Below, piece by piece: positions 1 to 49,652 of a stretch of 64,000 nt of DNA (its first letter is position 1; every line of letters begins with the position of its first letter). The notes beneath the pieces are model-generated. The model was not told the DNA's origin. It worked only from the letters and a program-made list of their open reading frames with translations, and did not search any database. Made by a program: the position numbers and the translations under genes. The DNA is from Harriotta raleighana (Eukaryota), in assembly GCA_050575255.1 (NCBI GenBank), contig JBNZDD010013726.1:4919036-4983035 (forward strand). The letters are read 5' to 3'.

Positions 1-136
1 ACAATCCTTTAGATGAACTTTGGTATTGTTTTCTGTCTTACAATGTGGACCAGATTGGTCATTTGATGCCAAAACTCTGGTCTATTCATTGTTTTCAGTT
101 TGGGAATTCCAAGGACCATCTTTAAGGACCATCTTG

Positions 137-245
137 GAGTTGTGATGAAGGGTCCATGGACTTGAAACCTTGATTCACTTTCCCTTCTCCATGGATGTTG
201 CCTGACCTGTTGAGTGTTCCCAGCTATTTTGGTTTTAGTTTCGGA
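137..245 (+). mobile_element. Penelope-like element terminal fragment with degenerate minimal hammerhead motif
   Basis: GTGATGAAGGGTC-CATG-GACTTGAAAC followed by ...TCTCCATGGATGTTGCCTGACCTGTTGAGTGTTCCCAGC..TTTTGGTTTT resembles the common chondrichthyan Penelope end (CTGATGAAGGGTC...CGAAACGT...GATGCTGCCTGACCTGCTGAG). Confidence 0.65.
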
Positions 246-1009
246 CCATCTTTAATTGTTTAGTGTTATGAAGAGTCAATGAGACTGTCTTTAATAGGAT
301 TTCTTGTATTAAAAACAATGAATTGGCATTCAGATGTTTGTGAGTGAGCAGATATGTGCGCCTCTTCAGTCCATATATACAAAGGTCTACATTTTCTAAG
401 CGGAGGATGATGTGTTGGATACTGCAGCTTAGTCATAATGTTTCAGACTACTTCAAGGGATTTTTTAATATCACCTGAGCAAAACTACATAATAAACTTC
501 TTGTGGATCTCGATAAGCATAAAGCAGCTGCTTGTGGTACAAATTGATACAAATAAGGAATCGATTGATATTGGATTTGCTGCCTTCTTTTGGAGACCAT
601 GTAAAATAATGCCAGTGCCTGTGATATCATAGTCAATATCCTAGTCGTGTTTTCACCGCACTGACCTGAAACAAGACATCACCAGTAATGCAAGTGACAG
701 TCAGTCAGCACTTCCTCAGGAAAAAAGCCTAAAGAGGATTTAGGTGAATTTCCAGCCAACTTCAATTGCAACAGCTGCTGTTTTACTGAACAGGAACATA
801 TTTTAATTTTTTTAAATTACAGAAATGCTAGTTTAACATAGTTTGAATGCAGCTGTCATTGATTCAGTTGATTTAGCTATTGCAAATGAAGACAAACCCA
901 AAGACTTGGTTAGCTTGTGTGTATTAGTAATTCTCTATTAATCCCTCTTTCAACCAGGACTAACCTTGCCAAGACATAGAATGATTACATTGATTCGTGA
1001 TTAAGATGC

Positions 1010-1039
1010 TCAAACTGTCTTTTTTTTCCACAGGTAAGT
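1010..1039 (+). promoter_or_regulatory. ank3: Recursive splice site (3' acceptor immediately followed by 5' donor)
   Basis: ctgtcttttttttccaCAG|GTAAGT; AG at 1032-1033, GT at 1034-1035. Same strand as ank3 exon 1b. Confidence 0.75.
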
Positions 1040-1193
1040 GAACTTGGCACAAAAAGTCACGTCACGCATCAGAACTATGTGATAAAGCAGATGTCTTACC
1101 TCAAAGGCAAGGGATCAAAAGGTTGCAGGAAGTAGAATGATATGCGATGCACTTACTGTATAAATATTTGAAAAATATAGTTTGATAAGAATG
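1034..1193 (+). other. ank3: Putative RS-exon (cryptic exon containing premature stops, 160 nt)
   Basis: Starts at the AG|GT site and ends at a strong donor ATG|GTAAGT (GT 1194-1195). Stops occur in all three frames: TAA 1035, TGA 1039, TAG 1133. Confidence 0.6.
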
Positions 1194-2264
1194 GTAAGTT
1201 TATCTCAGTCACATTTCAGGATGTGTAAATAAGCATTTTCAAGACTATTAATCTTAAGAGTAAAGCTTGATATGGTGTATTATTTTTGTTTTGTAATAAA
1301 CAACCCAAAGGATTAGAATTCTCCCTGTGTACTTGAGCAATGAGCAATTGCTGGAATTATAACTAGGATTCATGTTCAATAATCAGTATTAGGGTTTGAC
1401 TTCTTGATGTTTGAAGTGTATTCAAGTTCTCGGTACAGATAATAAACACCGGATTGACCTAACAAGCTATGTTTTAAGTTAAGATTAATATTTATTCAAG
1501 TTCATTCACTTATTTGAGATGAGAAATTAACTCTATCATCATCATTGTTTGCAGATGTCTAAAGGGATTTTGAAAAAGGAATGACTTTTGTCAAATTGTA
1601 GCACTTTATTGAATTTTTTATATAAGGTTGCTGCTTTGTGTGCTAGTTGGCATGGAGCCTAGGTAATCAGCATTTTAAAATCAGTGTTGAATGTAATTAA
1701 GTTCAGGGGGTAGCCTGGTGTTCAGTTATTTGAACAGTTTTGCAGCAGGGCAGTTTTGCGCAGAAGATAATTAAGGTAATTTACAGTTTGAGTTGGTTGC
1801 CATTTGTGGTGAATAATGGAAGTATGCAGCCGAGTTCTGGAGAGGATACCATCAACAGAGTTTTGTTGGAGCCAAAGTTTACGAAGACTGGCACTAGACT
1901 AGAGAGACTGGTCAGAAATAAAGTGTTGGAAAAAATACTTACTTGAAGATAGTGCTGCTTTGAAAGCAAATGGCTGCAGGGTTGTGCGATAATGCAAATT
2001 ATAAATCATCAGATATGCAGTTTGTTGGTACAGTATGTTTCAGTGCTGTATCCTGATTGCTGTCTTCCCTTGTACTTGTGCAATTGGCACATTTAACTCC
2101 TTTCATAGATTTGAAACACTCCACTACATTCTTGCTGATGCAGTCATTCTCTGTCCAAGTTAATTAAGGTTGATGGATTCTATTGGAGTATTTGCTGAAC
2201 TGCTCTAAAGTGACCAGCTAAACATAATCTTTCAGTGATTTCTTCACATTCTTCAAATACATTT

Positions 2265-3414
2265 CATAGAATCAAATAATTTTACGGCACAAAAAGAGGC
2301 CATTCGGCCCATCTAGTCTGCGCCGCCTCTTTGAAAAGAGCAACTCAATCCCACTGCCCAGCTTTCTCTCCATAATCTAACAGACCCGTTCTCCCTAAAT
2401 AAAGATCTAATTCTCCTTTAAAAGCTGTTATCGAATCGGCCTCCACCACCTTTTCAGGCAATGCATTCCAGATTTGAACAACCTGCCGAGTGAAAAATTT
2501 TCTCCTCAGCTCCCCTCTGCTTCGTTTGAAACTATTTTAAATCTGTAATCACGAGTCACAGATTCGCCCACCAGTGGAAACAGTTTTTCCTTATTCGCCT
2601 GTTGAATCCCCTCATGATTTTGTAAACCTCTATTAGGTCTCTTCTCAACCTTCTCTGTTCCAAAGAGAATAAACCTAGCCTATCTAGCCTTTCCCCATAA
2701 CTGAAGTCCCTCAATCCTGGTATCATTCTAGTAAACCTTATTTGCACCCTTTCCAATGCCTTAACATCCATAATATAGTGTGATGACCAGAATTAGACAT
2801 AGTACTCCAGCTGAGGCCTAACCAAAGTCTTACAGAGGTTAGTCAGCACTTCCTGGCTTTTGAACTCTATACCCCTATTGATAAACCCTAGTATCCCATA
2901 TGCCATCTTAACGGTTTTGTCTACCTGTCCTGCCACCTTCAAAGAGTCACTAACACAAATCCCCTGGTCTCTCTGTTCCCTCACACCCCTTAAAATTGTA
3001 CCATCTAGTCTATATTGCCTCCCCTCATTTCTTCTCCCAAAATGTATCACCTCACACTTCTCTGCATTAAACTTCATCTGCCATGTGTCTGCCCACTTAC
3101 CATTTTATCTATATCTTCTTGCAGATGGTTACTATCCTCCTCACTATTTACTATTCTCCCTAACTTAGTATCATCTGCAAACTTGGAAATTGTGCTCCCT
3201 ACACCCAAGTCCAAATCATTAATATATATTAAAAAGAGCACTGGCCCCAAAACCGATCCCTGGGGGACGCCACTGCACACTTCTCTCCAGTCTGAAAAAC
3301 AGCCGCTCACCACAACTCTCTGCTTTCTGTCTCGCAGCCGGTTGTGGATCGATGCTGCCCTTGTCCCTTGAACGCCGTGGGCCACTACTTTCCCAACAAG
3401 CCTCTCATGTGGCA
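2265..3414 (-). mobile_element. CR1 LINE, 5'-truncated 3' portion (RT domain to 3' UTR), frameshifted
   Basis: ORFs 3074-3460, 2793-3077 and 2556-2771 give CR1 ORF2 motifs SGVPQGSVLGPVLFLIYINDL, KFADDTKL, MKFNAEKCEVIHFG, LVRPQLEY and LGLFSLEQRRLRRDLIEVYKIM. The 3' tail reads ATTCTATG on the minus strand. Confidence 0.95.
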
Positions 3415-4742
3415 TTTCGTTTTTGTTTGATTGAAACCAATTTGAGTCCATGGTTAACATTTATCATTTTCTGCAAAATTGCTGAAGGGGGGAAAGAAAG
3501 ACACTTATTTGTTTAATTGCCTAAGTAAGCATTGATGTGATTTGAATAGAATTCCACAGGTTTTCCAAATGTTGTAAACATTAGCATGTTTGCACCAATG
3601 CTTTTAAAAGGTTAAATGTCTTTCAGAAAATGTAAAAACTGGAGAACATTTCCCAGTGTCCTGATCAACAATCCCCCTAATCGCTGTGTGCAAAATTGGA
3701 TGTTGCATTAGCCCACATAATCCACAGTCACAGTGTAATTTGTGAAGCACTGCGATGCATCTGGATAACACAATAAGGAACCGAACCAAATGCAAGCGTT
3801 ATTGTTCTTATTAAACGATCGAACAGTTAAGAAAGGTAGAATGGTAAAGTTTGTGTTGGGCAGAAATATAATGGTACTTGGATGGAAGATGGAGGGTCAG
3901 GGCTATGGACTCTTCGTCTCACTGACCATTCTGCAAGCTGCCATGGGAAGTGGCACAGATTTGAGCCCTTGATCTCAGCCTCGATGTACAATGAAATGTA
4001 GAGACTTTCACTCACCTCTCGTTGGCTGGTGAAATGTGGGATTAGAGATACAAAGGGGCCATCTATCCTGTCCTTTTGCTGCCAGGACATGTTTGGAGCA
4101 GTGGAGAACTTATTGGAAAGACAACTGGGCATAAAGGAAGGTGTATGCAAGATTGTCGATGCTTGCAAACATCTGTATGATTTGGGATCACAATGACATG
4201 ATCCACAACATTATTTCTGTTCTTCTTGATACCAATAATTGTTGCCATGCACAGGTAGGGCTTCGTTGTGATGAGATTCTCAATGTGAGGTTGGCCTGGC
4301 TTGTTACCAAGCTGGAGGATGTACAGTCTTCAAACCGTGGGCAGACAGACTGGTGCGGTTGTATTTGTGTAGCACCAAATTGATTGCCAGCATTTCCCAT
4401 GGAAAGGGGGAATTCCAGGAATCTCCTTGCAGTTTGTCAACAAGTCTACTACAAATTCACTTCTAATTTGAACAGTTGCAATTCAGTGGTTTAGAATTCA
4501 ATGCATAATGCCTTCAATTCTATTCATGGCAAGCTATGTGGTTTTGGCCGACTAGACTCTGACTCCTAGTACCTGAACATACACTTTGGGGTCCCCATCC
4601 CTTGGTTCTTGCAACCTGTGCCTAATACTTTGGGAAATGGGTAAGCAAGATGCATACCTCCAGATAAAGAGTGCACATTCCATTCCAACAATCTATCTCT
4701 GGGATTTCCATGTGTAAGTGGCATACATGGACAGCTTTACAT

Positions 4743-5037
4743 GCCTTACAAGCATGAGACCTGTGTTCGAATCCAGGCAGATCAGGGCGAAACCTTGGGC
4801 AAGTTTCCTTACTCCACATGCCTAATAATAATCCCTCCAAAAAAACGACAATAATAAAATTGGTCATTTCAATCTATGACTGTTTGTGGGACACTGCTGT
4901 GCGCAATTGGCTGCCGCGTTCCGCCCACAAATATACAGTCAATTCACTTTACAGTATATTCTGTGAAGCGCTTCGGGACATTGATAAGATGTGAAAAGCG
5001 CTATATCAAATGCAAGGATTAATATTATTATTATTAT
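4743..5037 (+). mobile_element. tRNA-derived Deu-domain SINE (holocephalan CmiSINE-like), 5'-truncated, young
   Basis: B-box-like GTTCGAATCC, CCTTGGGCAAGT, Deu-type CTGTTTGTGGGACACTGCTGTGCGCAATTGGCTGCCGCGTT, L2-type tail GTGAAAAGCGCTATATCAAATGCAAGG and (ATT)n. Nearly identical to the copy at 63466-63793. Confidence 0.9.
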
Positions 5038-24320: not shown

Positions 24321-24437
24321 ATGGCTCATGCTGCTTCTCATCTTAAGAAAAATCGGGAAATAGAAGTTGTGAACTCAGTCGATGAGGAAAAAATCATAAG
24401 AAGACACAGGAAGCGTTCTCGGGATCGAAAGAAAAAG
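24321..24437 (+). CDS. ank3: Ankyrin-3 (ankyrin-G) alternative first coding exon 1b, 39 codons, phase-0 donor
   Basis: Translation MAHAASHLKKNREIEVVNSVDEEKIIRRHRKRSRDRKKK matches the human ANK3 isoform-1 N-terminus MAHAASQLKKNRDLEINAEEEPEKKRKHRKRSRDRKKK. The donor AAG|GTACCT sits exactly after KKK, where similarity ends. There is an in-frame upstream stop at 24285. Confidence 0.95.
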
Positions 24438-24833: not shown

Positions 24834-24869
<36 letters not shown>

Positions 24870-24870
24870 T
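24834..24870 (+). repeat. (TG)n microsatellite
   Basis: About 18 TG units with one TA interruption. Confidence 0.95.
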
Positions 24871-26375
24871 AAAAAAAAAGAGGGTATATTTTAAGTGTTG
24901 TTTATTTCAATAAACTATATTTGGCACAAANATGTGTGTGTAAAAAAAAGAAGGGTATATTTTAAGTGTTGTTTATTTCAATAAACTATATTTGGCACAA
25001 ACGAGAGGATAGTGGTTGAGGTGTATTTTCAAATGAGGTTATTAAACCCTCAACCTAAAGAACACTTTTTTGGATGGCTGCATTTGTTTATAACAAGAGA
25101 ATTCTCTTCTTCTTTTGTATTTTTAGTAGTAGACACTTTCTATTCTGCATAACCTTAACCCTTGTGCTTCTTGTGATTTCCTCTAAAGGTTCCCCTCAGT
25201 GATGGAGGGGATTTTTTTTACACACTGATAATTTTCTTATTGTCATTGTTTCAATGGTGCAGTAGGATTTTGTCATCCCTTTTTCCCAATTAACACTTAA
25301 TTGATAATGTTTTCAACTTGAATAATCAATAATGCATCCTTTTTAAAAAAAGATTCATTTTGATTTTTTTTGTCTGCAGTGTCCTTTAGCACACTCAGCA
25401 GATTGTTGTATTCGGTACAGGTTTCCATGATAAATGACCCATTGTGCAAGGTAGTGTGGCTGCAGCTGTTTGGAGCTGTGTTCTGCATTCCTTTGTCACC
25501 ATTTCCTTTTTTTGTTGTTAAATTCTCTTGGGATAATACAATCCCAATTTGCTCTAAGCATTGAGGCATCCATCCTTCTACTAAATGATCCGCAAACATC
25601 ATTTGATGATACAAACAGCAAATACATGTGTGCAGTTTATTCAGCGCTCTTCAATATTAACCCTCTTCCTTCCACTAACTGAAACACTACTGGCATTGGA
25701 TAGTGTTTGTTGGTGGGAGGGAAGTGATTGTGGTTGTTTAATTTCCAATTAATCAGGCATTGGAGTATTTAGTGGATTGTTTTCCCAAGTCACACGTTCT
25801 GTATATCCAAGAAACATTGGTATGTTATCGATATATTACAATTGAGGCAGCGATTTCTATAATAAAGAATTCTGACAGGTTTCAAATGCTGTTTGTTAGA
25901 TGTCAGGATGGAATCCAAGGCCTCTATAAACTGTTGTCTTTCTATTTGTTGGAAGTGGTGTTCTACATAAACATGAACAGTCCAGTTAATGGCATTTATC
26001 ACTGTGATGTCACAGCCTTTTCAGTGCCAAAACTGATCCAGTCTTATTTTTAGCCTTAGGTGGAGAGAGTGTGTAGACTGGGGCCACTCAGTGATTTAGA
26101 AAAGATTGATATAGTCCTCAAGCAGCACTGCTGTTCCTTGCTTCTGCTTGTTGTGTTCTCGCGTGAAGTGCTGTTACTGAATGCTGTAGAACGTCACTTT
26201 GCAAATTTATTTTCACGATATTCACAAGATACACAAATTTAAATTGACCCCTAACAATCCAAGACGAGAATAGCATTGGTAGTGGCCTAGCTGGGAGCAG
26301 AAGCTATTTAACCAACTAGAGTCAATTAGGACCAGTGAGGTATAAATACTCTAGATTCATTGATTCTTTCTGATT

Positions 26376-46304: not shown

Positions 46305-47095
46305 ATATATCCGCTTCCACCCTCGACTCCAGGACTACTGGCGTTCTGACTGCGTGTCTGTCCGTCATTGAGTCCTGGACGAGGGACAACTTCCTCCAAC
46401 TAAACGTCAACAAGACGGAGGTCCTCCTGATTGGTTTGCGTCCGCAACTCAGCAACATCAGCATTCAAGGTTGCTCTCTCCACCTCTCGAAGCGAAACAG
46501 GAAATTGGACATCCTGTTCGATCCCAAATCTGCACCATGACCAGTACAGCCTTCCACCACCTCCGCAGCATTGTCAGACTCCACCACCACCTCACCCACC
46601 ATGCTGCCGAAACACTCATCCATGGATTCATCACATCTAGGCTCAACTACGGGAACTCTCTTCTCGTCGGCCTTTCTAGATCCTCCCTGCAGATTATTCA
46701 AAACTCTGCAGCTCGTGTAATCTCTGCACTAGGCTCCGTGACCACATCACTCCTACCCTCGCCCGTCTTCCCATCTCGCAGAGGATCAAATTCAAGATCC
46801 TCATCCTCACTGTCAAGGCCATTCACGGCCTTGCCCCCTCCTATCTCTCCGAACTGCTGTCACTCTATCACCCTGCCCATCCCCTCCGTTCAGTGGGCTC
46901 TGGCCTGCTCTACATCCCCAGCGCGAACTGCTCTACCATCGGTGGCCGGGCTTTCAGCCTCTCTGACCTCACGCTCTGGAACTCCATCCCGCAATCCTTT
47001 CGCCTCACCTCCTCCCTTTCCTCCTTCAAGGCTGGTCTCAAGACCTTCCTCTTCGACCGTGCTTTCTGCTCCCCTTCTAACTCTCCCCCCTATCC
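46305..47095 (+). mobile_element. L2 LINE ORF2 C-terminal fragment, frameshifted
   Basis: CLSVIESWTRDNFLQLNVNKTEVLLIG, AFHHLRSIVRL..AAETLIHGFITSRLNYGNSLL..LQIIQNSAAR, and GGRAFSL..LWNSIP..FKAGLKTFLF appear in successive frames. Confidence 0.95.
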
Positions 47096-49652
47096 TACTC
47101 TCCTTCCCCCTATCCCTACACCCTAACCCTAAACCTCCCCCCCTCCCCCGCCCCTTGTATTGGACCTCAATACAAGAGCTACGTAGAACCTTCCAAAGGA
47201 CAGTACAAACAACCAAGTGAAATTGGTACAAATTAATCCATAATTAATCCAAATGCACCTTTGTTTGAATTTACTCTATTGATGGAGCGTTTTAGATCAT
47301 CCAGAATTCAGCAAATTGTTAAATTTCTTCTCATCTTTGAATAGAATACCAACAAAATATAAGATTACATTTATAGAGCACCTTTCACGTCGGGTTTCTT
47401 AAAATGTGTGTAAAAAATGCTTTTTAAGTAAAAAAATTAAAATTCTTAAAAAAGAATTTTTAAGTAAAAAAGAATTTGACAAATTCTGAATGGTGCATAA
47501 ATAGAATAAATCTAGACTCCAGTGGAATTTCATCTCAAGTATACCTTCAGTATTTATAGTTTCACTCAATTTTTTGAAAAGATCATTCGAATCGTTCAAA
47601 CAAATAATGTTCTTTAAATCATCTTGAATGTTTTCTGTGAGTACTGTATATAGCAAAGAAATCCATTATCTAATAAAATTATACAGACTGACAAAAAGAA
47701 TAGTCTCACCATATTCTATCTTCCAATCTATTTCCCTGCTGAAATTAATTGCACAGAAGCCAAATATCTTTAGGGCTGTGCCCTTTGTGGAGCTGGTACA
47801 TTTGTATATTTTAGACTTCTGTATTTTAAAGAATTCATAATGTTTACAATAGCATCTTTTGAGATTTAATAGATTTGGATTTAATATATAATTTTTCTTT
47901 ACGTGCATTATGCATTTAGAAATGCAGCTTTTCAGCTGCATTCACGCAACTGAAAAGCCTGTTTGATGTGTAAATTTGGCCAAGCCTGCGGGACATCAGT
48001 CTCTGGGGAATGACGCCTCAGCTGCCAGCTTGATGGCCGTTTTGTCAGCCGAGAACAGTGAGATTGCACTGATCTGGCCCACACTGCAATCTGGACTCTA
48101 TCTGTGTTGCCTGCTAAATTCACAATGTATAGTAGTATTGAGCTGTGAAATGTACAGTTGAATTCGTAACATCCGCTCCCCGCTAAGCCATTATTTATAT
48201 GTTTACAATTAACGATCAATTATAACATAAAACATTTCCTGTTGAATTATTGTGCTTTCAAATCAAGAAAAAAATCTAACGGTAAAGAACTCTGGCTGTA
48301 TCTGTCAGGCCAGCTTTGTGGGTAAAAGCACTGCAGGATGAGGCTATGCAGGTTGTGCTGGTGCAGAGGAGAGAGCATTGTGGTGGTGCAGTGTGTACAT
48401 GATTGTGGTGGAGACAGGCTTGTGGTGCAATGTGTACATGATTGTGTTGCAGTGAGAACAGCATTGTGGTGGTCAGTCGGGTAGCATTGTAGTGGCGCAA
48501 GCTTTATCCGCTGACTTCTAAATAGTTCCCCAAGCAGGTATCCGAAGGCTCCTTATACCAGGTGTTGCGTTAGAAAATAATGCTGATTTGAAAAGCTACG
48601 GTCAGTGGAGAGTTTTGTGGAAGAGCCTGTATTGCATAAATTAGCAAAGTGCTCAGTCGTACATGTTTTTCAGCAAATAGTTTCAAACACGTTTCCTATC
48701 CTAGGGAGTGTTCCATCTGGGTCTGGACTTATTCTGTTTATGTGGCATTTCAGAGAGTCCAGAAATTGGCAACTTGTTGAATTCAGTCTCAACTTTGAAC
48801 AGGTTTAAATTGCTTACAGAAATCCGACTTCAGAACCTGCACTGTAGTTAAGAATTTCAGCAAACTCTGAAGTGTTACATAAATAGAGCATATCTATTCC
48901 CAGGTGGAATTTCTACTTCCCTGCCTTGAGGTGTGCTAACTACTGTAAATGACTACAGTATTTTTCAAAAAACAAATGTACTCAGAGATAGCCAAGGAGT
49001 AACCAATAATCCCCCCTTTTAAAACAAAACAACAAACCAATTAAAATACTAGCATTTTGAAAATATATTCATTATGTCCCTTTCAATTAGTCTTGTTGTA
49101 GAACTGCCATGTTCTGAACTTATCACAACTGGAACCTTTATTTCCACAGTGAGGTGCCTGTTGATACGCTATGCCCTTCAGGTGGGAAGCCACTGGATGT
49201 GAAACATCCCACCATCATTGTTAATGGAGCTTTCTGTTCGGATGGATGGGATATGTACTGGAGCACACATATCAGTTTGAAGCTCCTTCAGGATATACTG
49301 TAATGTTTAGTAACAGTGCTTCATGTAATGAATGATTGAGAAATAACGAAATGCACCCAGTGGAGAGAGCAGGCTTAAGTGAAAAGCGTGACTGAAACCC
49401 ATGAAAGATTACTTCGAAATATTATAATTTACCATAACCCTGTGGTTAAATAAGTTTTACTTGTAACCTAAATCACTCATCCAAGGCATTGGAGATGCGA
49501 GCAAAGAAGATGAATTCCAAAGTATGATGGATGAACTATGAGTAATTAGATAAACTAGGTCCTTTGTAGCTTTGGAAAATCTGTATCTCATTGGAAGCCT
49601 TAGAGAGGGTAAATAAGATACTAATTTTGACTGAGAAAGTAAACTCAGAACA

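Follow-up and report, generated by a model that had tools for sequence, protein, structure and literature searches.

A candidate recursive splice site in the first long intron of chimaera ank3, at the relative position of the mammalian ANK3 site

What keeps recursive splice sites in a few long neuronal introns is a question that a splice-like motif in the chimaera Harriotta raleighana raises for ank3: is the recursive site known from mammals also present here, and would it be used? The human ANK3 site, first described by Sibley et al. 2015 as cited in PMC6110456, is given in the latter source at hg19 chr10:62268383; its intron measures 292,825 nt, and the site lies 63,839 nt (21.8%) from the upstream end. 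PMC8797253 places the mouse Ank3 site at mm10 chr10:69595048, at a distance of 60,765 nt from an upstream exon that ends in AAG. The chimaera candidate lies near the start of a 64,000-nt stretch of the forward strand (GCA_050575255.1, contig JBNZDD010013726.1, positions 4,919,036 to 4,983,035), which we call the window and from whose first letter all unprefixed positions are counted. Judging from the sequence, we consider it rather likely that the junction at 1033/1034 is orthologous to the recursive site of mammalian ANK3 and that the intron around it would be removed in two steps.

The host gene is ank3, as the original prediction had it, and several observations at the locus agree on this. 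A giant-exon ORF of 2665 amino acids lies downstream in the gene, and among the best 120 of 2812 matches to its residues 30-600 are ankyrin-3 of Callorhinchus with 95% identity, 13 elasmobranch proteins with 64-76% and tetrapod and coelacanth proteins with 58-60%. Ankyrin-3 is likewise the top one of four PDB matches for a death-domain exon at the locus, and motifs of the neighbors cdk1 and rhobtb1, named by reading of the sequence, occur 67-84 kb before the window. The 95% identity to Callorhinchus ankyrin-3 also bears out the predicted chondrichthyan placement, the source being a holocephalan.

Having searched 464 kb, we located the MSEE exon, the upstream first exon of the gene, and exon 2 (102 bp) at 78879. 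The coding sequence of the MSEE exon measures 63 bp and ends in AAG at window position -21178, contig position 4897857; the intron between them measures 100,056 nt and carries the candidate site on its sense strand. A downstream alternative first exon, the MAHAAS exon (117-bp coding sequence, 24321..24437, + strand), begins 23.3 kb downstream of the site, on the strand and at the distance expected, so that a transcript starting there cannot use the site. The name "1b" given to it earlier presumably follows another naming scheme. It corresponds to exon 1c in PMC4449188, which describes five first exons of mouse Ank3, and the three chimaera sizes match those of mouse exons 1b (63 bp, ending AAAAG/gt), 1c (114 bp) and 2b (102 bp) given there. 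A search from -70 kb to exon 2 revealed no exon that resembles the bamboo-shark 1a N-terminus. The direct junction of the MSEE exon to exon 2 is present in one skate protein model (P0011) and four amniote ones (5/120), which are annotations of other species and blind to a stop-containing form.

The surroundings of the site are largely unremarkable. No repeat match was found from 246 to 2254 in a comparison with 1.22 Mb of loci, which agrees with the repeat-free stretch of about 2 kb described earlier; the region 900-1300 has a single match in the genome, and an Rfam search of window 1-5000 returned no matches. LINE-like reverse-transcriptase fragments, recognized by reading of ORFs, lie at 2255-3460 and 46372-47243 and recur at other loci. 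Further along, at 24835-25001, a near-duplicate of about 70 nt flanks a single N, which is probably an assembly artefact; N-joined duplications are also seen elsewhere, an example being a doubled PDE4 UCR1 exon.

We scored the splice signals with our own matrix, for which 28 exons of this genome served as the training set. The putative 3' splice site (1009..1033, + strand) has pyrimidines at 12/12 positions of the tract 1018-1029, followed by CACAG with the AG at 1032-1033, and a candidate branch-point A was picked out by eye near 1012. Its score of 12.6 (training median 7.9) makes it the 8th best of 5864 AG dinucleotides in the intron. The partial 5' splice site GTAAGT (1034..1039) directly abuts this AG, and a second donor, ATG/GTAAGT (1191..1199, GT at 1194; rank 12 of 5648 GT in the intron), would define a cryptic RS-exon of 160 nt (1034..1193, 3n+1). 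Acceptor, abutting donor and second donor thus all lie where the original prediction had put them. The predicted exon has a GC content of 36%, like its flanks, and 61% purines against 50-51%. It also contains a weak internal donor absent from that prediction, AAG/GTTGCA (1119..1127, GT at 1122; rank 316 of 5648), which would give an 88-nt form.

Given that the MSEE exon ends in AAG, splicing to 1034 would rebuild the donor AAG/GTAAGT, as in mouse. This 9-mer is identical to that of mouse Ank3, attains 12.8 in our matrix, which is the training maximum, and has a MaxEnt score of 11 in the table of PMC8797253; the downstream ATG/GTAAGT is given 11.01 in the same table and 10.1 by our matrix. Read in the frame of the MSEE exon, the first stop is a TAG at 1133..1135; it follows the ATG by 162 nt, and another 58 nt separate it from the end of the exon. 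An in-frame stop more than 50 nt before a later junction is a layout of the type recognized by nonsense-mediated decay (NMD), though chance alone predicts such stops. Stops are indeed present in all three frames of the exon, as had been noted, but they lose their value as evidence for a poison exon, given that 4241 of 5000 random 160-mers from the window (85%) have them too.

The site is also linked to mammals by its position. The chimaera site lies 22,211 nt into its 100,056-nt intron, that is at 22.2%; the human site is at 21.8%, and the mouse site at 22.0% if the exon 1b-to-2b intervals in the table of PMC4449188, which sum to 276,012 nt, are taken as the intron. The proposed orthology is therefore upheld by position, and so is the further expectation of an upstream first exon ending in AG, in the form of the MSEE exon with its AAG. 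That the MSEE exon is also the upstream exon used in mammals is suggested by the distance of the other human upstream exon, which is 106,560 nt away. The exact agreement at 22% must partly be luck, since the end of the MAHAAS exon falls at 45.6% of the interval in chimaera and at 62.8% in mouse, showing that the intron has scaled unevenly. The last 16 acceptor bases are the same as in mouse Ank3 at 13/16 positions by eye. We give this little weight, because another chimaera tract with a similar likeness to that of mouse Opcml (C13485:270080) proved to be the coding donor of an ATP13A1-like gene. Overall, we regard the site at 1033/1034 as quite likely homologous to the recursive site of mammalian ANK3.

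The motif could in principle be read in another way, with CAG/GTAAGT as an ordinary donor, either of a 76-nt cryptic exon (958-1033) or of a non-coding first exon, and the T-rich run as exonic sequence. Such an exon would have a plausible acceptor at 935..957, likewise absent from the earlier description, and CAG/GTAAGT unaided is the third best of 5648 donors in the intron; the ATP13A1-like case shows that a match to our pattern can be a coding donor, and the five first exons of mouse Ank3 (PMC4449188) would leave room for one more here. However, the acceptor at 957 scores 7.0, below the training median of 7.9, and ranks 251 of 5864 against rank 8 for the one at 1033. The phase-0 frame ending at 1033 lacks an ATG after its last stop and would supply no N-terminus for exon 2, nor does this sequence match the first-exon peptides of related proteins, and its CpG observed/expected ratio is 0.31. 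An ordinary donor would also leave both the second donor and the match to the mammalian position unexplained, and we consider this reading unlikely.

If the site is instead a recursive one, its use can be outlined along the vertebrate model, in which a cryptic exon is marked out by a downstream donor, with which the rebuilt donor then has to compete (PMC6224609, PMC8758631, PMC8797253); the mouse introns with such sites are longer than 51 kb according to PMC8797253. In a first step the donor at 1194 would define the 160-nt exon, the MSEE exon would be spliced to 1034 and 22.2 kb would be released. In a second step the rebuilt AAG/GTAAGT would outcompete the donor at 1194, and the exon would leave with the remaining 77.8 kb, so that the MSEE exon would end up joined in frame to exon 2. 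Should the donor at 1194 win, the stop 162 nt past the ATG would be included and degradation of the mRNA by NMD would be probable. Such early stops, it should be said, often partly escape NMD. Recursive use of the chimaera site in this manner appears likely.

A variant of this scheme accepts the homology and takes the exon as mainly included, a poison cassette that tunes the level of MSEE-type ank3 mRNA through NMD. The near-equality of the two chimaera donors in MaxEnt terms (11.01 downstream, 11 rebuilt) lends it some weight, as the mouse downstream donor reaches only 8.44 (PMC8797253). Inclusion of RS-exons is described as a competition between two donors in which the rebuilt one is open to repression by the exon junction complex (PMC6224609), and the in-frame stop at 1133-1135 is retained, as TAA, in three related runs. 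However, a mouse site with equal donors offers a precedent for the opposite outcome: at Lsamp, where both score 11, the exon is mostly skipped, with 161 up-junction against 5 down-junction reads (PMC8797253). Our own matrix also prefers the rebuilt donor, 12.8 against 10.1, and stops are expected by chance. Based on the Lsamp precedent and this preference, skipping is likely to be the main outcome, and a mainly included cassette seems improbable.

Close relatives provide a further view of the site. We compared DNA contigs of four runs over 300-2200, three of which come from two other organisms and are about 93% identical to the window. No change falls in 1026-1065, 1119-1127 or 1190-1229 among the differences listed (40/153) for these three runs, which are too close for a statement on constraint; for run X5, the list covers 14 of the 16 differences in 998-1308. 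By comparison, at least 10 places differ between relatives within the 160 nt of the predicted exon body. This pattern fits retention of the signal along with an exon body free of constraint, at a distance too small for constraint to be tested. At window 1017 all four runs, the closest included, have three extra pyrimidines, suggesting that the tract in the assembly is a shorter allele or bears a small deletion.

How rare such a motif is can be judged from pattern searches. One match to the strict pattern (12 pyrimidines, N, Y, AG, GTAAGT) occurs in the window, and 100 shuffles of the window contain none. Over both strands of the 1.1-Gb genome the count is 15, including one duplicate pair, and that of the reversed control is 49; two looser patterns give 68 against 279 and 223 against 564. 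The resulting sense-strand expectations for this intron are 0.0007, 0.003 and 0.01 for patterns of falling strictness, while a looser pattern with one mismatch has 2 matches against 0.94 expected and is not above chance. By joint score the site (25.3) leads the 335 AGGT of the intron, ahead of the next at 20.3 and of the best antisense one at 22.8, and a G/GTAAGT donor would be met within 250 nt in about 1.3% of cases by chance. The strict pattern also fits 6 of the 20 mouse RS sites, Ank3 among them, and its 8-pyrimidine form 11 of 20, as read from the table in PMC8797253, and is thus not tailored to the chimaera site alone. As a pyrimidine tract joined to YAG/GTAAGT occurs about 3-4 times less often than the reversed control, it appears that such sites are purged unless used. 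A chance or independently arisen splice-like motif with no role in splicing is very unlikely: it could appeal to the 14 other strict matches in the genome, one of them in a low-complexity repeat (L045), and to an exon body whose conservation is not visibly above that of its surroundings, but the count expected in the intron is 0.0007-0.01 even before its place in the intron and the second donor are taken into account, and the deficit relative to the reversed control (15 against 49, 68 against 279) also speaks against it.

Among the other genes known for recursive splicing, a similar site was found only in cadm1, the pde4d-like and hs6st3-like stretches being incomplete. A PDB match (E 1.3e-20) identifies the chimaera cadm1, a known recursively spliced gene in mammals, which has a strong + strand AG/GTAAGT about 34 kb before exon 2 (L181:4480-4650; C13629:2078506). 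This is the sole combination of at least 14/20 pyrimidines with YAG/GTRAG in 273 kb on either strand, the site having been picked once the match list was known; its joint score is 25.4 (next 23.2; antisense 23.3), and a weak donor follows at +134. A search for exon 1 of cadm1 did not find it, perhaps owing to an assembly gap, and the place of the site in its intron is thus not comparable with mouse. No strong site was found in the pde4d-like gene from the UCR1 exon up to the contig end 89 kb above. In the hs6st3-like gene 200 kb were covered, from 30 to 230 kb above exon 2 and short of exon 1, and they contain no YAG/GTAAGT. We did not locate lsamp, which by synteny we take to belong on the GAP43 contig, and that contig has no plus-strand match to the 8-pyrimidine pattern; ntm, opcml, cdh4, cadm2, robo2 and ncam1 were looked for and not placed in this assembly.

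The remaining pattern matches lie in varied settings; for the loosest pattern, inspection of hosts covers the first 100 of 223 matches. One match (L050, with its duplicate L042) is not in robo2, and lies 3.9 kb before an exon that reads as contactin-like in translation. L049 is 110 kb before a peroxidasin-like exon, and C13667:4044435 is 56 kb before exons that, again by reading of translations, are LASP/nebulette-like. An RS-like site on the + strand at C13713:7933868 (L052) has a 54-nt exon closed by CCG/GTAAGT, with a second strong AG/GTAAG site (L117:5019) 45 kb beyond on the same strand; no coding exon was recognized in the 100 kb following L052. Pairs of RS-like motifs on the same strand, a few hundred kb apart, are also seen at C13720:7744703 and 8505470 (-), C13730:10140058 and 10459133 (-), and C13667:4044435 and 4407740 (-). 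As a separate observation, L133-L135 (C13720:7.06-7.09 Mb) read as three tandem CD200-like genes. The single metagenome match to the pattern (L246) was set aside as an 18-nt chance match, the DNA around it being unrelated and apparently coding.

If the reading as an orthologous recursive site is correct, it would date the ank3 site to the jawed-vertebrate ancestor and would reveal no new mechanism. The original prediction went further in having the mechanism itself pushed back to that ancestor; this holds for the ank3 site alone, since recursive splicing is already established for zebrafish cadm2a and for Drosophila (bioRxiv 2025.08.14.666599, PMC5126111, PMC6224609), and the gain is accordingly one deeper node for one site. 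Our literature search recovered no report of recursive splicing in cartilaginous fish, and alignments to fish or shark sequence may already be among the figures of Sibley et al. 2015. In a human cell line, blocking the ANK3 site is reported not to lower expression (PMC6110456, bioRxiv 2025.08.14.666599). A site retained both in mammals and in the chimaera, whose intron is only one third as long, would argue for selection on something beyond sheer intron length. A more speculative combination, which we think doubtful as a whole, is that a neuronal set of recursive sites (ank3 and probably cadm1) goes back to the jawed-vertebrate ancestor, that the ank3 site was held at 22% through a threefold change in intron length by selection on its relative position, and that the equal-strength downstream donor of the chimaera forms an NMD switch between ank3 promoters.

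Set beside known systems, the chimaera site most closely resembles that of mouse and human ANK3, with which it shares the gene, by our reading the intron, the upstream exon ending in AAG, the pyrimidine tract with ACAG/GTAAGT, the rebuilt AAG/GTAAGT, the 22% position and an exon length of 3n+1. It differs in its intron, 100 kb in chimaera and 276-293 kb in mammals, and in the predicted RS-exon, 160 nt here against 79 nt ending AAG/GTTCGT in mouse; the downstream donor is a consensus one here (11.01) and weaker in mouse (8.44) (both PMC8797253). The internal AAG/GTTGCA that would close the 88-nt form can be compared with this mouse exon end. Whereas PMC8797253 gives 173 up-junction and 4 down-junction reads for mouse, the chimaera site is a prediction from DNA.

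The ratchet points of Drosophila likewise divide long introns by an AG/GT juxtaposition, which a short cryptic exon usually follows, but this implies no homology; ratchet points number in the hundreds in flies, while few efficient sites occur in vertebrates (PMC6224609). RS-exons that are annotated and repressed through the exon junction complex (PMC6224609), and RS-like cryptic exons (PMC8797253 S4C), have in common with the chimaera exon a strong downstream donor that could allow inclusion; in the latter the rebuilt donor is mostly weaker than the downstream one, whereas that of the chimaera is a full consensus. With the vertebrate RS-exons of CADM1, CADM2, OPCML, NTM, NCAM1, PDE4D, ROBO2, HS6ST3, LSAMP and zebrafish cadm2a it shares a strong 3' splice site with an abutting partial 5' splice site, a second donor no more than 350 nt downstream, a location in the first long intron and a GC content like that of the flanks. 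Among such RS-exons of long neuronal genes, the ank3 site described here is the first cartilaginous-fish candidate that we met in our searches.
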